A DNA stretch of 64,000 nucleotides, taken from positions 320,001 to 384,000 of the forward strand of contig CAWBEI010000002.1 of NCBI GenBank assembly GCA_963787835.1, in the 5' to 3' direction. The translations under genes and the position numbers were made by a program. This DNA comes from Ignavibacteriota bacterium (GTDB lineage: Bacteria > Bacteroidota > Ignavibacteria > Palsa-1295). The number at the start of each line of letters is the position of its first letter. Position 1 is the first letter of the stretch. The notes under the pieces were generated by a model. That model was not told where the DNA came from and did not search any database. It was given only the letters and a program-made list of their open reading frames with translations. Below, in pieces: positions 22,293 to 33,884 of this stretch.

Positions 22293-22348
22293 GGTACTGT
22301 CCTAATTAGACTTGGTTCCTAAAACGATATAGTTTTTGTTGTTAAGGC

Positions 22349-22693
22349 TTACATCCCAATGCTTCCCATAAGTTGACGCACGATGCTCTGAATTAAATTC
22401 GGAGTGACTTCATTGAGCGAAAACGGTTGACCGGCATCTTGTTCAACGATAATTTTACCTTTACGAATCGAGAGCGGGATCATCCTTGTGATAGTAGGAG
22501 ACTCCGAATAGCCGGAAAAATGAATACGAAAACATCTCTCTTCCAGCCCATTTTTAGTTTCGGTAATAGTCAAGCTGCACCGATCTGAGTCGTGGATTAT
22601 TTCTGCGACAATATCGGGGTTTTGTACTAACCTCATTTTAATAAGGTCGAAGGTTGGAAGCATTATCTGGTTCGCACATTCATCAAAGTTCAT
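22349..22693 (-). CDS. Hypothetical passenger protein
   Basis: 114-aa ORF with upstream GGAAT-N17-CGTT motif. Confidence 0.55.
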   Translation of the reverse strand: MNFDECANQIMLPTFDLIKMRLVQNPDIVAEIIHDSDRCSLTITETKNGLEERCFRIHFSGYSESPTITRMIPLSIRKGKIIVEQDAGQPFSLNEVTPNLIQSIVRQLMGSIGM

Positions 22694-22807
22694 ACTCTCG
22701 GAACGCCAGAGATTCGAGTGGCATTCCCATCCCCACGGGCAGGTTCGGTGCTTTCAGGTTTTCCGATTGAGGAAACGATACGAGGAATATTGCCGTAAGA
22801 AGAACTG

Positions 22808-23152
22808 ATGGATTATCGTGGTCAAGAAGCATATTATGATGAAAAAGGAACACTTCGCCGAAAAAGCGACGGCGTGAGGATTGTTCTCACTCTAAAAGAA
22901 AGAGAGCAATATAAAAAAGAAGGCTATCTTTCTAACGGCGTAGAGACCGAGCCTCTTAGAGAAGAAAAATTGCAACGTCAGGGTTGTATGCTTTTATTGC
23001 TGAAGGATAAGTCACTGAACGACAAAGAAACTGAGCGGCGCATCAGCGCATTCGCAAAACAACTTATTAGAGAGAACAAAGGCAATCCTGACTTCTGGGT
23101 CATTCGCGCCCCAGAGGACAATACACAACCCTCTCATTGGACGGTTTTATGA
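22808..23152 (+). CDS. Hypothetical passenger protein
   Basis: 114-aa ORF after GAAAC-N17-CGTA motif. Confidence 0.55.
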   Translation: MDYRGQEAYYDEKGTLRRKSDGVRIVLTLKEREQYKKEGYLSNGVETEPLREEKLQRQGCMLLLLKDKSLNDKETERRISAFAKQLIRENKGNPDFWVIRAPEDNTQPSHWTVL

Positions 23153-23373
23153 TCGTCGGATGGAGCGACATATTTGTCTAAAATCTTGGTAATCTCATCT
23201 TCTGCGGAGCATTCTAAGCAAATGGCATAGTAGGTAAGGGCGAACGACTCTTCGTTTTCATATTCTCCTTTAACCGATTTAACGACCTCAACGGTATGCT
23301 TATCGTTAGTTGTGCATTTCGTATTCGCAAATCGTTTTTTAATTTCAGGGGGAATGCGAGGGATTGTTTCCAT
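23134..23373 (-). CDS. Small hypothetical passenger protein (Cys/His, CxxC)
   Basis: 79-aa ORF co-directional with the IS1595 transposase. Confidence 0.45.
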   Translation of the reverse strand: METIPRIPPEIKKRFANTKCTTNDKHTVEVVKSVKGEYENEESFALTYYAICLECSAEDEITKILDKYVAPSDDHKTVQ

Positions 23374-23379
23374 ACAAAT

Positions 23380-23565
23380 TCAACATTCGCTGGAGTTAAA
23401 GCATTCTTCAGGATCGAGCGCGCTTATTCGAAGCCGCTTTGCTCCATCGTGGCTTTCTTGCATAATACTCCGCACGGCGCGCCCGAAGCTCTTCGGTTCT
23501 TCGGAGGTCGTGTTTGTGTTTGGCGCGGAGTTCATTGGAACGGGTTGATCGAGGAGTCTTTTCAT
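23380..23565 (-). CDS. Small ORF coupled to the IS1595 transposase
   Basis: ATGA overlap with the transposase stop. Confidence 0.4.
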   Translation of the reverse strand: MKRLLDQPVPMNSAPNTNTTSEEPKSFGRAVRSIMQESHDGAKRLRISALDPEECFNSSEC

Positions 23566-24482
23566 AAGGATGCTCCGGTCAATTCCTCATACGTCAGCCG
23601 TTTGCCGAAGAGCATCGTGGCCGCCTTGATGAATCTGCCGGAGTCATTGTCCTTTCTGTTATCGTACCGGAAACCCTGTTCGTCAAGGTAGCGGTCAAGA
23701 TGATAGGGTTCAACGTGGATGTACGTGCCTTTGAGGGCGCGCTTCACCAGCGACCAATAGTTCTCAATGGTATTCGAATGCGTGTTACCCTTGACGTATT
23801 CACCGCGTTTGTGATTGACAGTCGAGTGATCGTAAACGACACCGAGTGCCTTGTACGAATTCGCTTCGTCACTGTAAAGGGTTGAGCCGACCTTCACGGT
23901 TGCAAGCACTTGATTCTGAAGCGTCCGTGCGTGAGTGTTCTCAATGACGCGCGCCTGTACTTTGCCACCCCGTTCAACGGCCCCGAACACGATGGTCTTA
24001 CCATCGCTTCCGCCACGGGATTTTACTTTGTTCGCGTGACGATTGCGCTCGGCACCGCCGAAGTAACTTTCATCTATCTCGACAGAACCCGTAAGTTTTT
24101 CCCCCGCATCCTTGGCAATACTTTCTCGGATCCTATGCCCGACATGCCATGCGCTCTTTTGTGTAATTTCTAAGGCCCGTGCTATTTCGTAGGAGCTAAT
24201 TCCATTCTTACAATTAACGACCATCCACACCGCAGGAATCCATTTTGTAATGGGAATTGGCGAGTTGTGCATGACCGTCCCGGCCTTCAAGGAGAACTGC
24301 TTCTTGCAGTCCCGGCATTTGAAGGCCGGACGAGTACGCATTCCGTAGATTGCTGTGGAGCCGCACTTTATGCAGCATCGTTCACCGCCATGCCAATAAA
24401 GCTCCGACAGGAATTCGACGCATACCACTTCCGAGGAGTAGTAGCGTACCGCTTCGAGTAGGCTTTTGGGTGTTTTGAGCAT
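23562..24482 (-). CDS. IS1595-family (ISXO2-like) DDE transposase
   Basis: Zn ribbon CIKC...CRDC; VEIDESYFGG, YSDE, VNH, HSNTIENYWS..KR, YLDE..FRY, KRLTYEEL. Confidence 0.92.
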   Translation of the reverse strand: MLKTPKSLLEAVRYYSSEVVCVEFLSELYWHGGERCCIKCGSTAIYGMRTRPAFKCRDCKKQFSLKAGTVMHNSPIPITKWIPAVWMVVNCKNGISSYEIARALEITQKSAWHVGHRIRESIAKDAGEKLTGSVEIDESYFGGAERNRHANKVKSRGGSDGKTIVFGAVERGGKVQARVIENTHARTLQNQVLATVKVGSTLYSDEANSYKALGVVYDHSTVNHKRGEYVKGNTHSNTIENYWSLVKRALKGTYIHVEPYHLDRYLDEQGFRYDNRKDNDSGRFIKAATMLFGKRLTYEELTGASL

Positions 24483-24979
24483 GATCGTGAGTTATTAGGA
24501 ACGTTCCCGGTGGAAATTGGATTAAATAGAAATACCCGATCATTAATAATAATGATCGGGCAAGTTGTGGCCCAAGCCACACGATTAAATTGTGCCAGAA
24601 TTCGCGTTCTGGTAGTAGCATGATGAGTGCGCGGGGGCGTTCTCGTCATGTACCCGGAGTGTGATTACTCCGGGTTTTCTTTTTCCGAATGAAGAAGCGT
24701 GGTCGATGCGGCTCATACGGAAAGAAAATCACATAAAAAACCCCAAGATATTACCTGAAAAACTCGCTTGCTGGCGTTGAGTCCCGACCGAAGCCGGGTA
24801 GGTAAATCTTGGGGTCAAACCCAAAAAAGTTTCAGTTGTATCGCCAGCAAGACGATGTAGGCTTTCACCTGACTTGGTTGCTAACGTATCATTACACTGT
24901 TCGTTTCAGTTCGCATGAAAAAAGTGGAAACTCTGAAAGCGGATTTGGGTTTCCATCGTGGCCTTTGGAACTAAATGGG

Positions 24980-26506
24980 TTATTTAGTAATCGCCAGATT
25001 GATGTAGCTCACCATATCTCCCACCCTAACGCGGCATACATATTTTCCCGATGGGAGCGTCTCCGTGCCGAGCGAAATGGATTGTGGGCCTTCGTTTGAA
25101 TAACCGTTCATAACCTCCATTATTTGTTTTCCCAGGGGATCATAAATAGCAATCTGCGTAAAGCTGGATTCTACTGTTGTAAATTTCAAGGTCATTCCAC
25201 CGCTTGAAGGATTTGGGAAAACTTCGGGGTTAAACCAATCGGGCTGTTGAGGGGTGGAAACACCCAACGTCGTATCTGAATGAGTCGGGCAATAAAGTTT
25301 CGCGAACATGCAGGAATCATCGCTCCCAAGTCCGCGTGGAGCGATGTTAGGTTGCGCCTGCTTAGATCCCATCAACATCCAATATCCTGGTATGCTACTC
25401 TTACAATAATTATAGTTATTAACGCAGGTGTCTCCACGAACAATCGTATCTGGATGTAGTAACCCGAGCCAATGGCCGATCTCATGCTCGATTATTTCCT
25501 TAAAGCTGAAATCATAAAACCCTTGATTTGCCGCGCCGGGGTCTGGGGCAGGTCCCGTGTACCATCCCATCAATGGACTCTGGTGTAGCTTGTAACCAGG
25601 AATAGGCTGAAGGGCATCGTTTCCATTTTGGTAGAAGAAGCTATTTGTTGCATTGTAAGTAATAAACCGATAATTTGAGTTCGGACATGCGCCTCCATCG
25701 GGGCATCCCGGATGCCCATACGTCCATGCAACAGGATAGCCGGCTTTTTTCAATCCAGATGCTTGATAAGTTCCTTGAAAGTGAAGGATATTAGTGTCCG
25801 GAATTATGAGGATACAGCAGGTTGTGTCGCCAGTAAATCCGCAAATTCCAAGCCACGCATTTAGATCGGATTGAGCATCAGAACTTGCACCACCCGTGTT
25901 CCAAACCTGATCGTAATGCACATCTGAGCCGTTGGCGTATGATATAGAGTCACTTATGTAAGTGTTGTATCTTTCTATATCGATTTCAAAGATTGAGTAA
26001 TCTTCTCTATCGCAGTCATAAACCGATAATGCCTCTTCATATTCTTCGTCATAGTCATAATTATCACGATTAGGAGGAACATCTGGTTCATGTCCATCAT
26101 GCACTTGGTGGAAATCGGTATCCCATTCGTCTAACCCGGCATTATAGGTTCCGGTATCCAAGACCTCACCCGGATCGGGAATGCAGCCGGAGAAAACATC
26201 ATAAGTATCTGGTAACGAAACAGGTTCTGGCGGCTCTGGAACAGGATCGGTCGGTTGATCGAATACACTCGTGTCAGGTGGAATTACATTTACACAACCC
26301 GGTATTTTCGATTTGGAGGGTGTGTAGCTTGGTGGTGGGTCATTCGGGTTTGTCGAACATTGCACGCCTTGAGCACCTGTAACGAAACAAAATACGTAAG
26401 GGAAACTCTCATTCCCGCATGGAATAGGGCAATGTATCGCCTGTGCCAACCCAATAGACGAAACGAAAAGGGAAGCAGCGATTAGAAGAAGTGGAAAAGA
26501 CTTCAT
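24980..26506 (-). CDS. Secreted metzincin-type zinc metalloprotease with T9SS CTD
   Basis: Signal peptide; HEIGHWLGLLH (HExxHxxGxxH) with a downstream Met; CTD VFPNPSS...LPSGKYVCRV. Confidence 0.8.
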   Translation of the reverse strand: MKSFPLLLIAASLFVSSIGLAQAIHCPIPCGNESFPYVFCFVTGAQGVQCSTNPNDPPPSYTPSKSKIPGCVNVIPPDTSVFDQPTDPVPEPPEPVSLPDTYDVFSGCIPDPGEVLDTGTYNAGLDEWDTDFHQVHDGHEPDVPPNRDNYDYDEEYEEALSVYDCDREDYSIFEIDIERYNTYISDSISYANGSDVHYDQVWNTGGASSDAQSDLNAWLGICGFTGDTTCCILIIPDTNILHFQGTYQASGLKKAGYPVAWTYGHPGCPDGGACPNSNYRFITYNATNSFFYQNGNDALQPIPGYKLHQSPLMGWYTGPAPDPGAANQGFYDFSFKEIIEHEIGHWLGLLHPDTIVRGDTCVNNYNYCKSSIPGYWMLMGSKQAQPNIAPRGLGSDDSCMFAKLYCPTHSDTTLGVSTPQQPDWFNPEVFPNPSSGGMTLKFTTVESSFTQIAIYDPLGKQIMEVMNGYSNEGPQSISLGTETLPSGKYVCRVRVGDMVSYINLAITK

Positions 26507-26545
26507 TGTTTGCTCCTTGTGGTTTTGGGAAGTGAATATGAACGA

Positions 26546-27592
26546 TTATGGATGGAGAATATTATAGATTCTCGCGCGAAGTCTTGACTTCCAGACCGCA
26601 ACCGTTAGACCACCAGAAATGGAGGCACCAAGTCCGAAATCGTCGTTAGGATCAACCACATGACCGCTTACGACTCTATACATCGCTCCTTGATTTCCAA
26701 AGACACCCCAATAAGGTTGAATGCTGAAATAGCCATTGGCGGTATCAATTCCAATTCCTGCGATTCGAAGGAACACGATGTATTCTCCTCCCGGCCTGAT
26801 CCACCATCCGGTCGAATCAGACAAAGCAGGCGAAAAAGGCATTTCATCACCTGCAATTGCACTTGCCCATTCGGGTGAATATTCAAATTGAATACACGCA
26901 CCACTATCAGCGCGAACTGCATACGTTGGCCAAGTTGAAGCATAGCTCATGGTTGTAATCTCATTGGATTTCCGGTGAGTGTGCATGTCTTCGCCGATAC
27001 AGAGTGGAATTTTTTGTCCCTTGATTTCATCAAGGATTGTGGAATTAACCAATACTATGTGTGGGGTAATGTTATCTGACGAGTTATACTTGACGATGGT
27101 ATCCCCGATAGTCACGTCCGCGATAATATCGGAAGCAAGAATAAAACCTGTACGACCGGTATCGCCTATACCATTTCCAATTTGATTAGCTAATATTGGA
27201 ATTGAGTTACCAGGGTTACCTTTATAGTGCCAAGAATAATCTGGGTGCCCTCCAAGAGGCCATGAACTGATCTCCCATTGATATAATGATAACGGATTAT
27301 CGTCACTAACTTTGTAAAGCATCTCGGCAAGGAACGTCATCGTGTCATCGTGCCCAAGATTCCCGATCCATTTGTTGATCAAGTTCCATTGCGTTGAGCG
27401 CATAAGTTCATCGGCCCAAAGGTATGCGCTTGCCACGTCGGAAGGTTGACTATCATATAGTGGTGGGACGGTCGTGAGAAGTGGGAGGCTATACTTGATT
27501 AAACCTGGATAATTCGGCCCCGTTTGGCTTCTCACAGCAGGTGCGGCAAAAAAACCTGCCCAAAGAAAGAGGATGAACATGATTCGTTTCAT
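26546..27592 (-). CDS. Secreted hypothetical protein upstream of the protease
   Basis: Signal peptide MKRIMFILFLWAGFFAAPAVRS; 39-bp gap to the protease gene. Confidence 0.7.
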   Translation of the reverse strand: MKRIMFILFLWAGFFAAPAVRSQTGPNYPGLIKYSLPLLTTVPPLYDSQPSDVASAYLWADELMRSTQWNLINKWIGNLGHDDTMTFLAEMLYKVSDDNPLSLYQWEISSWPLGGHPDYSWHYKGNPGNSIPILANQIGNGIGDTGRTGFILASDIIADVTIGDTIVKYNSSDNITPHIVLVNSTILDEIKGQKIPLCIGEDMHTHRKSNEITTMSYASTWPTYAVRADSGACIQFEYSPEWASAIAGDEMPFSPALSDSTGWWIRPGGEYIVFLRIAGIGIDTANGYFSIQPYWGVFGNQGAMYRVVSGHVVDPNDDFGLGASISGGLTVAVWKSRLRARIYNILHP

Positions 27593-27937
27593 AAAAACCC
27601 TTCCAGAAATGAATATTTGAAGTATGAAATTCAACTAACAGCACAAAGATACAACACTTTTTCCATCAAGTTTTAGATTTGATTTTCCGAATTGCAGGAG
27701 AATAGTAGGGTATTTGCAGGTGCTTTTTTCAAATGAAATGGGCGTTATCGTGGCTCTTTTCAACGGTTCATCGTGCATGATCAATTATTATGGAGGTTCT
27801 TATGATAATCGTGTTGCGAAGCATATTTTGTAAGAAAGCAACGATGGAGTAAGGAGGATAGAATCGGTGTTCGAAAGAAAGTCCGATGCTCACATGCCAA
27901 TGAAAAGCAACGGACTTCACCTCAAACAAAAATCATA

Positions 27938-28144
27938 ATGCTGAATGTACCGAAAACACTACTAAAAGAATTCGACGATATTATGAAAGCAAGCAAATGT
28001 GGTAATGACCGCTCCCACGTTATTTACGGAGATATAAACTGGGTTGTACGCGATGCGGCTGGCCTAAATCGTTACGATTGGTATATTAGATGTAGCGAGA
28101 ATGGGTGTTCCTTCACGGATCATGGTACTATCTGGCGGCCTTGA
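27938..28144 (+). CDS. Small hypothetical passenger protein (Cys/His-rich)
   Basis: 68-aa ORF, overlaps the convergent ORF. Confidence 0.35.
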   Translation: MLNVPKTLLKEFDDIMKASKCGNDRSHVIYGDINWVVRDAAGLNRYDWYIRCSENGCSFTDHGTIWRP

Positions 28145-28366
28145 ATCGAGGGGTAAATGAACTTCATTCCATTCTTCATTGGTTTGAGGCATAACATCGA
28201 AAAGCGGATCGTCTTTGAATTTTTCAACAATGTACTCGATAAATTCTTGATCTTTTGGACATTGCAATACCGCACCCGTGTGATAAGGATTCCCTCGCTC
28301 GGTGAATCGTGTTTCCCTCAGACGAAAATAGATGGCAACGTATTCTTTTTGTTCATCAGAAATCAT
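28064..28366 (-). CDS. Hypothetical passenger protein
   Basis: Shares its 35-bp upstream element with 22808-23152. Confidence 0.5.
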   Translation of the reverse strand: MISDEQKEYVAIYFRLRETRFTERGNPYHTGAVLQCPKDQEFIEYIVEKFKDDPLFDVMPQTNEEWNEVHLPLDSRPPDSTMIREGTPILATSNIPIVTI

Positions 28367-28509
28367 AATTCTACTTAAGGTAACGCCGCTTGTATCGTTT
28401 CCTCAATCGGAAATCCTGAAAGCGGCGTAACTTTATTTGGAAACCTCTGGTTGATTCTAATATATTAGTGCCATTTGACTTAGTTCCTAAAACGATATAG
28501 TATTTGTTG

Positions 28510-28758
28510 TTAAGAGGTTTTCGCTTCAGCCATCACAAAAACTCGATGACGGTAATTACCTTGTTCGCCTTCTTGGAAAAGACAGTGATTAACGCGGGAG
28601 ATTATGTAGTCCATCTTGCTATGATTAAATTCTTCACCGACTGATGGAATGACCGGTGCATGGTTGAGTGGGTATTCGCACTCGAACTCATACATAATCT
28701 GACCGCCTTCACGGAGAACGTATTGCACGGCGTATGTTACGCTTTTGATTGAATCCAT
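28510..28758 (-). CDS. Hypothetical passenger protein
   Basis: 82-aa ORF with TGAAC-N17-CGTT motif and the same flanking modules as 22349-22693. Confidence 0.55.
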   Translation of the reverse strand: MDSIKSVTYAVQYVLREGGQIMYEFECEYPLNHAPVIPSVGEEFNHSKMDYIISRVNHCLFQEGEQGNYRHRVFVMAEAKTS

Positions 28759-29175: not shown

Positions 29176-29809
29176 TTATTGTAACACAGTATCCCATCCC
29201 CACGCACTGTTCGCAATCCCTGCCATTTGAGCCGGAGTGCAACCGATCGAGGAATGAAAGCGCATGAAATTGTAATGATAGAAGTGAAGATTCACTGCGG
29301 CTCGTAGGTTATCGAGCTTCTTGCTCCAAGCGTTTGTCAGCCTTGTCAGTCGCCTCAACCCCATACGCATCGTGAGGTTTTGCCTCTCGATGTAGCTGGT
29401 GGAAATATCTTCTACCAGTGGTGCGCCGAATATGACTCGTAGCGTTACTCCGACCAGACGGGCGGGTGAGTAACGACGCTCCCCAATGTACGCCTCGGAA
29501 TACTTTTTGTGAACTTGTCCGTAATCAATGGCACTCTTTCCATAGACCTTGTAAATCGCACTCACATAAGCATTCCAGGCATCGGTGCTGAGTTGGTAGC
29601 GGGTTTCGATGCGATCTCGAAGCTGTTCGAGAAGCTTCATAGCACTCCACCCATCACGCTTGCCAACATAGAATGCTGGTACGAGCTTGCTATCTGCATC
29701 AATGGCAACGAAGGTGTAAGCGTCACCATATTCCGCTTTATCAGCTAACGGATCTACACGTTTCTGTTTCTTTCCCACGTATCCCCAGACTTCATCGAGC
29801 TGTATCCTT
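29176..29809 (-). pseudogene. 5'-truncated IS1-like DDE transposase
   Basis: IQLDEVWGYVGKK, STD, ISTSYIERQNLTMRM; homologous to 30285-31139 but the HTH N-terminus is replaced exactly at the TIR starting at 29810. Confidence 0.85.
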
Positions 29810-29860
29810 GGTAGTGGCTCAGTTTGGGAACTTTCGATATTTTTATACTGAATTATGTTT

Positions 29861-30058
29861 ATGAACACACAAAAGATCGAAGTCGGCGATATGGTGAAAT
29901 TGAAAAACGGCGCAACGGTATTAATGTCCGTTCACGAATTGAACGGACATGGGATAGAATGCGATTGGTTAGATAACGAGAATAGATCGCAAAGACAGAC
30001 CTTTGCACCTGCCCAACTTATCCGTTTAACCGATTCCCAAAATAGTCAACGAGAATGA
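29861..30058 (+). CDS. YodC/DUF2158-like small protein
   Basis: IEVGDMVKLKNGATVLMSV...IECDW...QTFAPAQL. Confidence 0.7.
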   Translation: MNTQKIEVGDMVKLKNGATVLMSVHELNGHGIECDWLDNENRSQRQTFAPAQLIRLTDSQNSQRE

Positions 30059-30212
30059 GTTGCTCCGTTATGAAGGCACCTTCTTGGAGTTCCCCGTTTT
30101 TGCTGAACCATTGGCAAATCCAATGATCTCCTGAGCCTTTGCGATTAACGCTCATTATTGGAGTGCCCTGAATGAATCCAAGATGGACTAAAGAGCCGGG
30201 TTTTATTTCCAT
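30018..30212 (-). CDS. Second YodC/DUF2158-like small protein
   Basis: IKPGSLVHL...GTPIMSV...WICQWF...EGAFITEQL. Confidence 0.65.
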   Translation of the reverse strand: MEIKPGSLVHLGFIQGTPIMSVNRKGSGDHWICQWFSKNGELQEGAFITEQLILVDYFGNRLNG

Positions 30213-30284: not shown

Positions 30285-31139
30285 TTAGTCAACCGTCAAA
30301 TCCCGTGTGTCAAGCAGGTCAACCAAGTCACCAATACTCCAAAGGTGATTCGTGAGTCCCGCCTTCATTGCAGGGGTCATTCTAAGGGACTGGTGAACCC
30401 TCACGAAATTGTAGTGCATGAAGTGCAAAGCGATTGATGCGATATGATGCTCAACGCTTTTCGAGAACCCATTCGTGAGCCGGGTAAAACGGCGCATTGA
30501 CATTCTCATTGTGAGGTTTTGACGCTCAACGATTGATGTAGAAATGTGATCGGCATTCGGATTTCCGAACTTCGGCTGTTTCTCAATGCTAATAACTTCA
30601 CCGGGGCTGTATCGCACGTCTGGCGAGTTGCCAGCACCTTTGCCATATTTCTTTACAAGCATTGCATAATCTACACCGTTGACGCCGAACGACTCACGAA
30701 CGGCGGTAAAATAATTTGCATGTGCGTCCGTTGTCAACTGAACGCGGTTAGCGAGACGGCTCGCTACATCACTCATGAACATATAGGCGTACTCTCCGTC
30801 ACGCCGTCCTACGAGCCATGAAATGATTAATTTGGAATCTGTATCAATGGCAGTCCAAGTCCACTGGGAACCAACATTGCCGGAAGCTCTCTCACCGTCC
30901 GTGCAATTAGCGTCTTTCTTTCCTACGAAGCTCCAAATCTCATCGGCCTCAACACGTTGCGCCGTGACACCCTTAACATTCTCATCGTGGAACTTCTCAC
31001 ACGCCGCACCTAAGTCAAGAAGGAGCTTAGAAATGGTATTCCGCGACACGTCAACCATGCGCGAAATCGCACGGATGGAATTGCCCTCGACAAGTGCCGA
31101 TACGATCTGAATTTGTTTGTCTCTGTTTAGCTTGTTCAT
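30285..31139 (-). CDS. IS1-like single-ORF transposase (HTH + DDE, no Zn finger)
   Basis: LVEGNSIRAISRMVDVSRNTI (HTH); VEADEIWSFVGKK; LTTD; HISTSIVERQNLTMRMSMRRFTRLTNGFSK. Confidence 0.9.
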   Translation of the reverse strand: MNKLNRDKQIQIVSALVEGNSIRAISRMVDVSRNTISKLLLDLGAACEKFHDENVKGVTAQRVEADEIWSFVGKKDANCTDGERASGNVGSQWTWTAIDTDSKLIISWLVGRRDGEYAYMFMSDVASRLANRVQLTTDAHANYFTAVRESFGVNGVDYAMLVKKYGKGAGNSPDVRYSPGEVISIEKQPKFGNPNADHISTSIVERQNLTMRMSMRRFTRLTNGFSKSVEHHIASIALHFMHYNFVRVHQSLRMTPAMKAGLTNHLWSIGDLVDLLDTRDLTVD

Positions 31140-31215
31140 GATAACTTAAACGGGTTACCCTAAGCATAAGTTTCAGTTTGTTTATTATTCTTCAAACAAA
31201 ATAGCATTCGTTAAG

Positions 31216-31470
31216 AAACCCGCGCCGGAACAATCCCGGCGCGGGTATGGTTAGTATAACCACGAGAGAAGCCGCCCGCCCGCAAAAGCAAACGGCTCCC
31301 CCTCCGTAACGCAAAAGCGTTACGCCTTTCACGGTAATCGTAAAAAGGGTGCTGGTGAAGCCACTAAAGGCTCTAACCGATTCCACGAAGTAGAAAGCGA
31401 CAGGAATCAGGCCACCAGCAAAATCAATATTAGGGGCTAATTTCGCCGTAGGAAGCGATTTTAGCCCTTT
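31216..31470 (-). ncRNA. Candidate structured non-coding RNA inside the transposon
   Basis: Six consecutive stem-loops, e.g. CGTAACGC-AAAA-GCGTTACG and a GCTGGTG...CACCAGC multiloop, ending in a terminator-like CCCGCGCCGG/CCGGCGCGGG hairpin. Confidence 0.45.
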
Positions 31471-31926
31471 TTATTCATCTTGTTTCGCTAAATTCCATTC
31501 TTTTAACCAGATTAAGTCGCCCTGACGCACGATTCTATCATCTTGTCCAACGCCGATAGCGAAGTTTCGGAATTCAAAAGTCTTGTTTCCGCTTCCCTTA
31601 TAGCCGTTTTTAACGAGGTGGTCGTATGCTTTCCTGAGAGAGTATTTGGCTGTTTTCTGTATTTTTAATAGCGCATAGGTCGCATTCGATGCCGTCATGC
31701 CAGTATAGAGTCCGGGCGACGGTAGATCGCCCTCATCCTCTTCATTCTCGGAAGCATCCTGTTCATCTTCATTTTCATCCGAAATCTCAATAAATTGTAG
31801 GAGTTCATCCGCCACGCCGGGTTTTAAGAATGAGGCAAGCCGATCATTCTCTTCCTTCAAAATCTCAATTTTTCCATCATTTTCAGCGATTTTAGCCCTA
31901 ATTTTGCTCTCTGAAAAGGTTATCAT
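31471..31926 (-). CDS. Hypothetical passenger protein (coiled coil, acidic linker, possible winged-helix C-terminus)
   Basis: Start MITFSE (31926) or ATG 31992; KIEILKEENDRLASFL heptads; DENEDEQDASENEEDE linker. Confidence 0.6.
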   Translation of the reverse strand: MITFSESKIRAKIAENDGKIEILKEENDRLASFLKPGVADELLQFIEISDENEDEQDASENEEDEGDLPSPGLYTGMTASNATYALLKIQKTAKYSLRKAYDHLVKNGYKGSGNKTFEFRNFAIGVGQDDRIVRQGDLIWLKEWNLAKQDE

Positions 31927-31995
31927 GATTTTCTCTGAATTATTTTTTGATGTTCTCGGTTCTATGGTTGCTACAAAATGCAAAACAGCCATTAG

Positions 31996-32072
31996 TAGCG
32001 GGGCGGGGGATCGAACCCCGCTCCTCTGGATCGAAAGTCCAGTGACCTACTGCCAAGTTAGTCTATCCCGCT
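31996..32072 (-). tRNA. Atypical tRNA-Glu(UUC)-like gene
   Basis: Cloverleaf: acceptor AGCGGGA/CCCCGCT, D stem GACT/GGTC with GG in a 12-nt loop, anticodon arm CTGGA-CTTTCGA-TCCAG, T arm CGGGG-TTCGATC-CCCCG, discriminator A followed by CTA. Confidence 0.8.
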
Positions 32073-32332
32073 GTTGAACTTAAAGGAATTGACCGAGTAA
32101 GCCGCCAAGCTTTTACCCGGTCTTTTTCGTTTAAGTGCACCCAACTAACCTTAACGGGTTCGAAAAGATTCATTAGTTAAATGGAAATAATGTAGTTAAA
32201 ATTTTAACGCCTCATTTCAGCAACAACAACTCGAAGCGTAAGACGTAGCTCAATACAGTTTTCAGCGCGTCAGATAAGGACGGAATCGACCCGAACGCGC
32301 CTGTATGACAATGAATAATTCCCACCACAGAT

Positions 32333-32566
32333 TCAATCTGTTTTCTTCTTCCACCGGGCTTTAGCCGCTTTTTTAGCAATCTCAGACCGCTTCTCGGCAC
32401 TTAGACGGGTCGCCCGAAGCTTTCCGCCCTCAGAACCCTTTTTTACGAATACTTCGCGGGGAATGGCTGTTTCTTCCTCGGTAGGCTCTATTTGACCCGT
32501 TGCATATTGCATGATCTTAAAAGCGCGTTGGTTTGGGTCACGGGGTAGTTTTTTGGGTTTTATCAT
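32333..32566 (-). CDS. Small basic transposon-associated protein (PRDPNQ / GGKxRA..LS..RSEIAKKAA.ARW family)
   Basis: Motif I recognise beside this type of IS1-like transposase (often auto-annotated histone-H1-like or RNA-binding); first gene inside the right TIR. Confidence 0.75.
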   Translation of the reverse strand: MIKPKKLPRDPNQRAFKIMQYATGQIEPTEEETAIPREVFVKKGSEGGKLRATRLSAEKRSEIAKKAAKARWKKKTD

Positions 32567-32650
32567 AACCCCTTAACGTTGCTTAGGGGGTAAGCATTGC
32601 TATAAAAAGTATAAAACACGAAACAATGGTTCCGAAAATGAGCCACTACC

Positions 32651-32789: not shown

Positions 32790-33047
32790 ACCTCGGAGGC
32801 AGACGGCTCAAGCCATGCGGTGTAGCCTTGACCTTTAGGTCACAGTGTGATTTCTTTGTGCTCCGCGACCGTGGCCTGAAGGTCACGGCTATGCCGCTTC
32901 TTTCATTGGGGCGTGATTTGATCTGAGCCAATCATCGAAACCATCACACGAATCACATAAATCATAGTTCAGACTCGGAGGCGGACGACGCAAGCCGAGC
33001 AGTGTAGACGTGACCTACAGGTCACGGTATAAATTCTTTGCGCTCCG
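32790..33047. repeat. Cluster of GTAG-type REP-like units with ~75-bp direct repeats
   Basis: CTCGGAGGC.GACG.C.CAAGCC...GTGTAG.C.TGACCT..AGGTCAC.GT...TTCTTTG.GCTCCG near 32792 and 32974; inverted unit near 32869-32891. Confidence 0.7.
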
Positions 33048-33201: not shown

Positions 33202-33884
33202 GCTCCGTAGGAGCGCAATATTTGTAGCCCCCGGTTTCAACCGGGGGTTGAGGAGGGCACAGGAATCATAAGCTCCGGAGGAGCGGCATATCACCCCAGC
33301 GCGGTAAAATCGAACAAGTATCGTTCATCGTATGGAATACCAAACGCTTCGAGCAGCGCAATATACTCCTCACGGAATGTATGCTTTTTATGATGCGCTT
33401 CCTGATTCTGAATGTACGCGATGACATGGTCTAATTGGGAACGCGAATAGGAGAATGCGCCAAAACCCTCCTGCCAACAAAAATGCCGCGTCATCCACGA
33501 CTGCTCGTTCAGCCAGAGCGTTGAACTCGCCTTGATGTGCTTGACAAGATCCGAGATCGATTGATCGGGCTTCAAGCCAACCAGAATGTGGATATGATCC
33601 GGCTCGTTTTCAATTGCAATGAGTTTATGTTTGTGATTTTGAATGATACCCGTAATGTATTTTTGAAGTTCCTCTTTATGCTCGCGTGGGATGAGGTTTT
33701 CACGACCTTTGACAGCAAAAACAAGATGAATATAAAGTTGTGTGTAGGTATTGGCCATTTGGGTGATATTACGCTCCTACGGAGCTAAGGGGTATTATTC
33801 GTGCTCCGCAACCCCCGATTAAAATCGGGGGCTACAAAGATTAGGCTCCTAATGGAGCCATGTAATATTCCGCTCCTGGAGCTT
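33202..33884 (-). mobile_element. Y1-transposase locus flanked by inverted REP-like palindromes (RAYT-like layout)
   Basis: Left GCTCCGTAGGAGC...GTAGCCCCCGGTTTCAACCGGGGG; right CCCCCGATTAAAATCGGGGGCTAC...GCTCCTAATGGAGC. Confidence 0.65.
33291..33758 (-). CDS. tnpA: IS200/IS605-family TnpA (Y1 HUH transposase)
   Basis: YIHLVFAVKGR, PDHIHIL (HUH), FCWQEGFGAFSYS, YIQNQ. Confidence 0.9.
   Translation of the reverse strand: MANTYTQLYIHLVFAVKGRENLIPREHKEELQKYITGIIQNHKHKLIAIENEPDHIHILVGLKPDQSISDLVKHIKASSTLWLNEQSWMTRHFCWQEGFGAFSYSRSQLDHVIAYIQNQEAHHKKHTFREEYIALLEAFGIPYDERYLFDFTALG

Follow-up and report, generated by a model that had tools for sequence, protein, structure and literature searches.

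The closest described counterparts of the tRNA gene reported here are the natural allo-tRNAs, which adjoin toxin-antitoxin genes and some of which mistranslate and kill E. coli (Mukai et al. 2017, PMC5389517). Irregular tRNA polycistrons are also placed near toxin-antitoxin genes, one of them overlapping a transposon-related ORF, in the accessible sections of the same paper and of a review (PMC5389517; review PMC7609411). For HisRS, a triplet shifted to positions 35-37 is proposed in those sections (Mukai et al. 2017, PMC5389517), with which the tRNA of locus L107 in our collection, combining G-1/C73 with a Thr anticodon, may be compared. To natural mistranslating tRNAs, whose purpose has been a question ever since allo-tRNAs became known, the elements analysed here offer a bounded genetic home and a candidate control system. 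Two further systems provide points of reference. CreTA, as set out in the available part of its description, has as its toxin CreT, an RNA with a mini-ORF that acts by sequestering a rare tRNA and whose repression depends on CRISPR-Cas (PMC8501985). IS1-family transporter insertion sequences carry passenger genes and share with our elements the DDE transposase, short inverted ends and variable cargo.

The cargo tRNAs resemble allo-tRNAs and irregular tRNAs in being extra tRNAs, for most of the sister tRNAs with a body identity that looks unlike the anticodon, and UAU and stop anticodons recur in both. They differ in fold, since allo-tRNAs have an 8/4 or 9/3 arrangement of acceptor and T stems with a long variable arm, whereas the tRNA studied here is predicted to be 6/6 with a short loop and most of its sisters are 7/5. 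The text and supplement rows of PMC5389517 that were available do not mention IS1 or bounded elements, nor do they refer to antisense control or to avoidance of codons, and its supplement may include some of the sister tRNAs. The open-access literature, subscription papers being outside our scope, yielded no account of IS1-borne tRNAs, of tRNA cargo in a recurring slot, of antisense-controlled tRNA toxins or of a 6/6 fold. By analogy, the proposed system would resemble type I and type VIII toxin-antitoxin modules, i.e., a small RNA directed against one codon class, a selfish element and control by RNA; unlike CreTA, the candidate toxin would be the tRNA itself and the control a predicted cis-antisense RNA. 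The cargo tRNA is a real and non-ordinary variant of the mismatched-tRNA theme, neither an allo-tRNA by definition nor an ordinary tRNA-Glu.

A tRNA gene inside an IS1-family element

The window, i.e., the whole 64,000-nt stretch of DNA that was analysed, contains a 2,841-bp IS1-family element bounded by 22-nt inverted repeats at 32629-32650 (left end, minus strand) and 29810-29831 (right end, plus strand), with GGTAGTG-type ends and arms that are 91% complementary. The cargo tRNA (31996-32072, minus strand) is separated from the nearer end by about 560 nt. Read along the minus strand, the element consists of the left end, ORF77, promoter-like motif, leader hairpin, tRNA, 151-aa ORF, a second structured non-coding slot, the IS1-family transposase, two DUF2158 genes and the right end, which abuts a second IS1-family transposase (about 29176-29808) truncated at its 5' end. 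An IS1-type DDE transposase and terminal inverted repeats identify the element as an IS1-family transporter insertion sequence, and we take ISMhu11-type to be the appropriate label for this single-ORF IS1 subgroup. It is present as a single copy in the genome, and no 8-9-bp target duplication was found around it, whereas one of 8 bp accompanies 136 of 164 two-ended relatives; the element may be old or rearranged. The preliminary description had called the tRNA cargo and not an attachment site, and we agree: the gene is internal and no duplicated tRNA end was found, so the attachment-site reading was rejected.

ORF77 (32333-32566, minus strand) is a small basic core gene of the family, with an automatic 'histone H1 family' label as an Atlas lead, and many related elements have a homologue of it at their left end. 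The transposase (30285-31139, minus strand) is a single ORF of 284 aa that scores over the cut-off of Pfam DDE_Tnp_IS1 and reaches 67 bits with NCBIfam transpos_IS1, below the cut-off of 100. The two small DUF2158 cargo genes are convergent and overlapping (30018-30212, minus strand, and 29855-30058, plus strand; together 29855-30212). The second non-coding slot (31140-31475, minus strand, 336 nt) opens with the same A-tract and hairpin as the tRNA leader, continues as a run of strong hairpins and is strongly structured (z -7.35, matched by 0/100 shuffles); it had no Rfam match at gathering score and is possibly a second toxin or regulatory RNA.

The ORF of 151 aa downstream of the tRNA (31471-31926, minus strand; 173 aa if counted from the first ATG at 31992) is a candidate regulator, and the tRNA ends 69 nt before its likely start, on the same strand. 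Its product has an N-terminal coiled helix, an acidic linker and a likely winged-helix domain, in a structural model that is confident in the coil only (pLDDT 62); no relative was found by sequence. A HARE-HTH lead comes from 38% of one Atlas cluster. Genes of this coil/winged-helix class, searched with a profile built solely from tRNA-less elements, occur in 7/14 tRNA-bearing elements against 17/144 others (p 1.3e-3); the 151-aa gene of the window, at E 0.13 to the profile, is not among the seven. The class mostly lies upstream of the tRNA in relatives.

Elsewhere in the window, 32792-33047 and 33208-33851 contain a pair of palindromic repeats of 74 nt each, together with an IS200-like Y1 transposase gene flanked by a 48-nt inverted repeat, in a REP/RAYT-like arrangement. 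An IS1595 transposase and long repeats lie around a secreted-protease region (22305-28514 and 23562-24482).

The 77-nt cloverleaf with a UUC anticodon, read from 32072 to 31996 on the minus strand, was recovered both by ARAGORN, as tRNA-Glu(TTC) at 31995-32072, and by Rfam RF00005 at 47.4 bits (E 5e-7; gathering score 29), with the invariant bases present and a fold (z -2.57) that 0/200 shuffles equalled. A1-U72, A11-U24, the 12-nt D loop, G37 and CTA are all in the sequence, as had been noted, together with A73. The A7-C66 mismatch and 5-nt variable loop first described belong to a less stable reading, since C66 pairs with G48 instead (predicted probability 0.99), giving a 6-bp acceptor stem, a 6-bp T stem and a 4-nt variable loop at a predicted -29.3 kcal/mol, against -26.0 kcal/mol for the 7/5 fold. 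All 21 stem pairs are formed in the predicted 6/6 structure, and three extra pairs can form in the large D loop.

Some features that had been taken as non-canonical proved unremarkable. A11-U24 is part of a GACU/GGUC D stem shared with host tRNA-Glu(UUC) and same-family relatives, and CTA in place of CCA is not diagnostic in a genome where only 4/47 tRNA genes encode CCA and a CCA-adding-type enzyme is present. G37 is not odd in itself, as both host tRNA-Gln have G37-A38 too; the unusual feature is C36-G37, since all 10 host G37 come after G36. A survey of related elements had been proposed as a check: tRNAs do recur in them, but this particular tRNA was without a close homologue in the sequences searched, whether among relatives (0/60), in a pattern search of viral contigs (0 matches), with an anticodon-arm pattern (8 matches, none a tRNA) or in phages and plasmids (chance-level matches only).

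Related elements and their leaders

Searches with the transposase yielded 80 loci from metagenomes, 64 viral ones and 80 from genomes, besides relatives; among the 257 related loci, the 164 two-ended ones carry GGTAGTG-type ends. With two covariance models, a tRNA of at least 25 bits was detected in 14 of 158 distinct two-ended elements (about 9%); the other cargo tRNAs come from elements with one or no detected end or were found later. The total is 37 cargo tRNA-like genes in 30 elements after merging of duplicates, with L266, L272, L185 and the weak L291 left out as uncertain. Most lie on the transposase strand, 55-860 nt upstream of that gene. On a midpoint-rooted FastTree phylogeny of the transposases (153/158 elements, five with short or broken frames having been dropped), tRNA-bearing elements are scattered, with 13 changes for 14/153 tips against 13.6 in shuffles, which suggests repeated gain or exchange of tRNAs. 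Two elements with transposases 85% identical both keep a long-arm Tyr-anticodon tRNA and an Ala-body tRNA despite drift. Variable cargo in related elements also includes HicA, HigB and Panacea-domain genes.

When assigned by hand to classes against published identity rules (PMC9976931, in its available part), the 36 other cargo tRNAs, from 29 elements, comprised 23 with a clear mismatch between body and anticodon, 6 with a probable mismatch and 7 with an aberrant anticodon loop; none was ordinary, whereas 16/19 flanking tRNAs outside the element ends look ordinary. The body identities, which follow from sequence rules, would be Ser (9), Leu (3), Ala (5), Arg (5) and His (1) for the clear mismatches. 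Ser-type bodies carry UAU, UGG, UAA, GUA or UUA anticodons and Leu-type bodies UUA or UCC; Ala-type bodies (G3-U70) have non-Ala loops, Arg-type bodies (A20) have ACU or GCU, and one His-type body (G-1/C73) has AGU. Read-through of the elements' own stops by UUA or UCA tRNAs was considered and rejected, since the three transposases checked are open frames ending in TGA. Near a related transposase, L266:1057-1129 (minus strand) joins a Glu-type D arm and CUC anticodon to an Ala acceptor (G3-U70, A73); it is a predicted Glu-to-Ala decoder for which element ends were not found.

In at least nine related loci, an ordinary tRNA gene lies no more than about 200 nt from one end. Loci with an end near an ordinary host or phage tRNA gene are L023, L038, L067, L080, L097-099, L115, L147, L176, L223 and L411, and insertion beside tRNA genes is a possible route of tRNA capture. 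Hidden allo-tRNAs were sought in tRNA-less elements with a coil/winged-helix gene, and Rfam found none in the 11/17 such loci scanned; 12 T-arm candidates from all 257 loci included no convincing cloverleaf. Between the coil/winged-helix gene and the transposase, tRNA-less elements hold small ORFs behind strong ribosome-binding sites or a recurring hairpin motif. The slot without a tRNA, often with a leader hairpin and a facing promoter, is seen in L138, L220, L051, L182, L157 and L040, and in L010, L027, L025, L041, L192, L006, L148 and L202; these slot fillers are candidates for type I toxins or CreT-like RNAs.

The upstream region of the tRNA had been said to resemble that of the transposase, and this holds at 13/15 positions (0/150 shuffles). 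The shared core, CGTT(T)AAG, occurs only three times in the element, at 32578, 32156 and 31152, i.e., before ORF77, the tRNA and the transposase. The most natural reading of the 15-mer is a promoter motif with three uses in the element; the copy at 32146-32160 (minus strand) would probably be the tRNA's own promoter. Between this motif and the tRNA lies an A-tract and hairpin (32091-32128) which, on the plus strand, reads as a hairpin with a U-tract (-10.8 kcal/mol), i.e., as a terminator in antisense orientation. Such terminators occur in 18/25 cargo leaders (the 25 being the cargo tRNA clusters known when the test was made) and in 14/46 host tRNAs, 3/19 flanking tRNAs and 30/200 shuffles; in position-matched windows of tRNA-less elements the count was 16/142 (Fisher 8e-10 against 18/25). 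For some leader hairpins, an alternative role could be to terminate the upstream gene, acting in both directions.

Promoter-like sites facing the tRNA were found in 14/25 cargo leaders, against 4/46 for host tRNAs, 0/19 for flanks and 16% of shuffles. The matched comparison showed antisense promoter-like sites not to be specific to tRNA-bearing elements (5/15 against 34/142 controls), and a specific antisense promoter is thus unsupported. The site in this element, TAATTTTG at 31899-31906 (plus strand), is of the host-type TAnnTTTG form, a motif enriched about 3-fold upstream of host ORFs. Running from this tentative promoter to the hairpin at 32091-32128 would be a candidate antisense unit, with a predicted RNA of about 220 nt (about 31910 to 32128).

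Identity elements and codon usage

The preliminary description had set the tRNA against E. coli identity rules for tRNA-Glu. The differences are in part real, and the deviation was overstated, given the host enzyme and the shared D stem. The genome encodes one GluRS, a GlnRS domain was found in 0/5 genomes of the genus, and GatB is present in 5/5 congeners (0/1 in this 98%-complete assembly); together these make the host GluRS most likely non-discriminating, an enzyme that would accept host tRNA-Gln with U1-A72 and G37. That the gene differs from host tRNA-Glu(UUC) was borne out, the two being about 50% identical (37/73 aligned columns, hand count). They share the anticodon, the GACU/GGUC D stem, A26, A73 and, in the 6/6 fold, a 4-nt variable loop; they differ in A1-U72, A9, the 12-nt D loop, G37-A38 and the stems of the acceptor, anticodon and T arms. 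In a comparison with 138 tRNAs, host elongator Met, with the same 3' acceptor strand, and a Leu(UAG), whose anticodon arm is the same except at positions 35-36, came closest, followed by Glu, so that the body appears from these alignments to be a mosaic of Met-, Leu- and Glu-like parts.

Identity was assessed synthetase by synthetase using the available parts of PMC9976931, and GatCAB recognition using those of PMC2811023 and PMC1635274. For GluRS, U34 U35 C36 and U13-G22 are present and nucleotide 47 is lacking only in the 6/6 fold, whereas there is G37 not A37, A1-U72 not G1-C72, a 6/6 not a 7/5 fold and a D loop of 12 not 8-9 nt; all 22 distinct Glu tRNAs of relatives have G1 and A37, the latter being part of the search pattern with one mismatch allowed. 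Plain glutamylation seems plausible, as the anticodon, D stem, U13-G22 and 4-nt loop supply most GluRS signals. For LeuRS, A73, A20a and G18G19 are present, A15-U48 and a long arm are not. Conversion from Glu to Gln by GatCAB was disfavoured by A1, the rule being U1-A72, and by the long D loop. Of the initiator-like formylation elements, G2-C71, C3-G70, G4-C69 and A73 are found, the C1-A72 mismatch and third G-C pair of the anticodon stem are missing, and such formylation was considered within the stalling option discussed below. A 6/6 or 7/5 fold with a 4-5-nt variable loop also departs from the allo-tRNA architecture of 8/4 or 9/3 with a long arm.

For ArgRS, A73, G2-C71 and C3-G70 are present and the C-G pair of bases sits one place 3', at 36-37 and not 35-36; A20, the main bacterial ArgRS determinant, is replaced by C20 followed by A20a. 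C36-G37 is an alternative Arg signal in yeast tRNA-Asp, and a second cargo tRNA (L021) has C36-G37 as well, with A73 in place of Asp's G73. The available part of one study states that m1G37 stops ArgRS from using yeast tRNA-Asp and guards against +1 frameshifts, and that TrmD requires G36 (PMC5372744); since the cargo tRNA has C36, its G37 would stay unmethylated.

The transposase uses 1 GAA and 11 GAG codons, against 84:38 in seven tRNA-less relatives of similar GC3 (6e-5). Of 239 transposases (not dereplicated), this one shows the most extreme GAA depletion, which also ranks second in 13,929 codon tests. It is confined to the reading frame (GAA 1/4/13 by frame), third-base use is normal for Lys and Gln, and sites that are conserved as GAA in relatives have become GAG or Asp, Gln, Ala or Lys. 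However, the other four genes of the element keep GAA (GAA:GAG 3:5, 10:7, 3:1 and 4:1), 5/495 host ORFs with a comparable number of Glu codons have equally little GAA, and family-wide avoidance was not found in 23 tests (combined z -0.99, one up to +2.7), the 22 on sister tRNAs showing no overall trend; the tests excluded L218 (no full frame), the stop-anticodon and aberrant-loop tRNAs and six later-found elements. The single strong result may therefore be due to chance or another cause. A genuine signal would speak for impaired UUC decoding at the time the transposase is needed, as expected of a saboteur or a decoy but not of a helper.

A candidate RNA toxin and its rivals

We put the chance that the tRNA is an RNA toxin corrupting GAA decoding at about even (roughly 0.5). 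The starting points are what was observed directly, i.e., the gene, its fold prediction and location, the family pattern, the leader terminator and the codon skew, and from these we infer the steps that follow. The tRNA would be transcribed from a promoter of its own, RNase P and 3' nucleases would release it and CCA would be added, with G37 left unmethylated owing to TrmD's need for G36. It would then carry the wrong amino acid; otherwise it would carry Glu, or stay uncharged, in a form prone to stalling or slipping. A wrong amino acid is possible, if doubtful, with Arg through the shifted C36-G37 signal as lead candidate and Leu second; taken singly, Arg is a long shot, its precedent being from yeast and the A20 of bacterial ArgRS being absent, Leu is a longer one, and Gln and any other residue are both highly improbable. 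Stalling or frameshifting at GAA we consider unlikely, less so than any single misincorporated residue. Host tRNA-Glu(CUC) would buffer GAG codons, and the transposase, its gene nearly free of GAA, would be immune to the toxin of its own element. The tRNA would be kept quiet by a cis-antisense RNA that ends at the leader terminator, possibly aided by the coil/winged-helix protein; loss of this control, through loss of the element or host shut-off in phage infection, would lead to growth arrest as in type I/VIII toxin-antitoxin modules, to the presumed benefit of the element.

Extended to the whole family, the proposal is that a widespread IS1-family lineage uses tRNAs as toxins in antisense-controlled addiction or abortive infection, re-coded tRNAs having been gained repeatedly in one slot, and that the present case adds an undescribed 6/6 fold, Arg or another wrong residue at GAA and a transposase recoded for immunity. 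We advance this only tentatively and at clearly less than even odds. If true, the known toxins of toxin-antitoxin systems would come to include tRNAs, and the recoding of a transposase against cargo of the same element would be a clear case of genetic-code conflict within one small unit. The elements are units of 2-3 kb that can be cloned whole, which makes a direct test feasible, and the cargo set offers natural missense, ochre, opal and possible frameshift suppressors, as well as a predicted 6/6 fold, for code engineering.

Among the roles offered in the preliminary description, a mis-charged decoder fits best, being consistent with the family pattern and the GAA loss. The rival that survives best, itself distinctly unlikely, is a non-decoding decoy that ties up GluRS, U34-modifying enzymes or an anticodon nuclease and so lowers the supply of host Glu-tRNA(UUC). 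It would account for the loss of GAA from the transposase too, and for an anticodon and host-type Glu D stem kept in an odd frame; 7/36 family members have aberrant loops, and in the accessible parts of the allo-tRNA report many allo-tRNA(UAU) were inactive in translation, and among the irregular tRNAs some went unused although charged (PMC5389517). Against a decoy, no tRNase gene was recognised in this element, and most family members look made for anticodon-ignoring enzymes, which is relevant only to decoding.

The tRNA might instead be a neutral passenger, i.e., a captured host tRNA that is now drifting, the GAA depletion being coincidental. The ends of related loci beside ordinary tRNA genes (at least nine), the single copy, the lack of a target duplication and the presence of tRNAs in only about 9% of elements all agree with this; we find it improbable nonetheless, as every stem is intact despite about 50% divergence from any host tRNA, the Met-, Leu- and Glu-like mosaic has its own promoter-like motif and leader hairpin, and the mismatch is systematic across independent gains.

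A nuclease-resistant decoder had also been offered; as a correctly glutamylated tRNA-Glu that takes over the decoding of GAA once host tRNA-Glu is cut, it would suit the UUC anticodon, the host-type D stem, the 4-nt variable loop, a non-discriminating GluRS that takes G37 and weak 1-72 pairs, and the Glu-rich (11%) 151-aa neighbour. Such a rescue role has little likelihood because a GAA-reading helper would not select against GAA, and the transposase avoids that codon and does not favour it; moreover, the host already has both tRNA-Glu(UUC) and tRNA-Glu(CUC), ordinary cognates number 0/36 among the sister tRNAs, and an antisense terminator would not be needed. Least likely of the four is that the cloverleaf serves as an RNase P/Z site setting the 5' end or level of the regulator mRNA, which would fit the same-strand spacing of 69 nt to the 151-aa gene and the co-occurrence of tRNAs with its gene class, but not the mostly upstream position of that class in relatives, nor the GAA loss, and cutting needs neither identity elements nor a given anticodon.

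Annotation pipelines would miscount genes such as the cargo tRNAs as ordinary host tRNAs. A host tRNA-like gene (G000:C4:58882-58980, minus strand, in the host assembly G000) has a long hairpin inserted in its anticodon loop and was missed by ARAGORN; loop insertions like it are seen in L017 and L438. Downstream of it is a 317-aa ORF, which by eye we take to resemble AlbA/Schlafen domains. Neither tRNA-Cys nor gatB was found in G000, probably because of assembly gaps. Partial duplicates of tRNA-fMet (C5:66909-66984) and tRNA-Ser (C4:17757-17842) in G000 suggest integration sites, and tandem 7-nt repeats lie upstream of many host tRNA genes.
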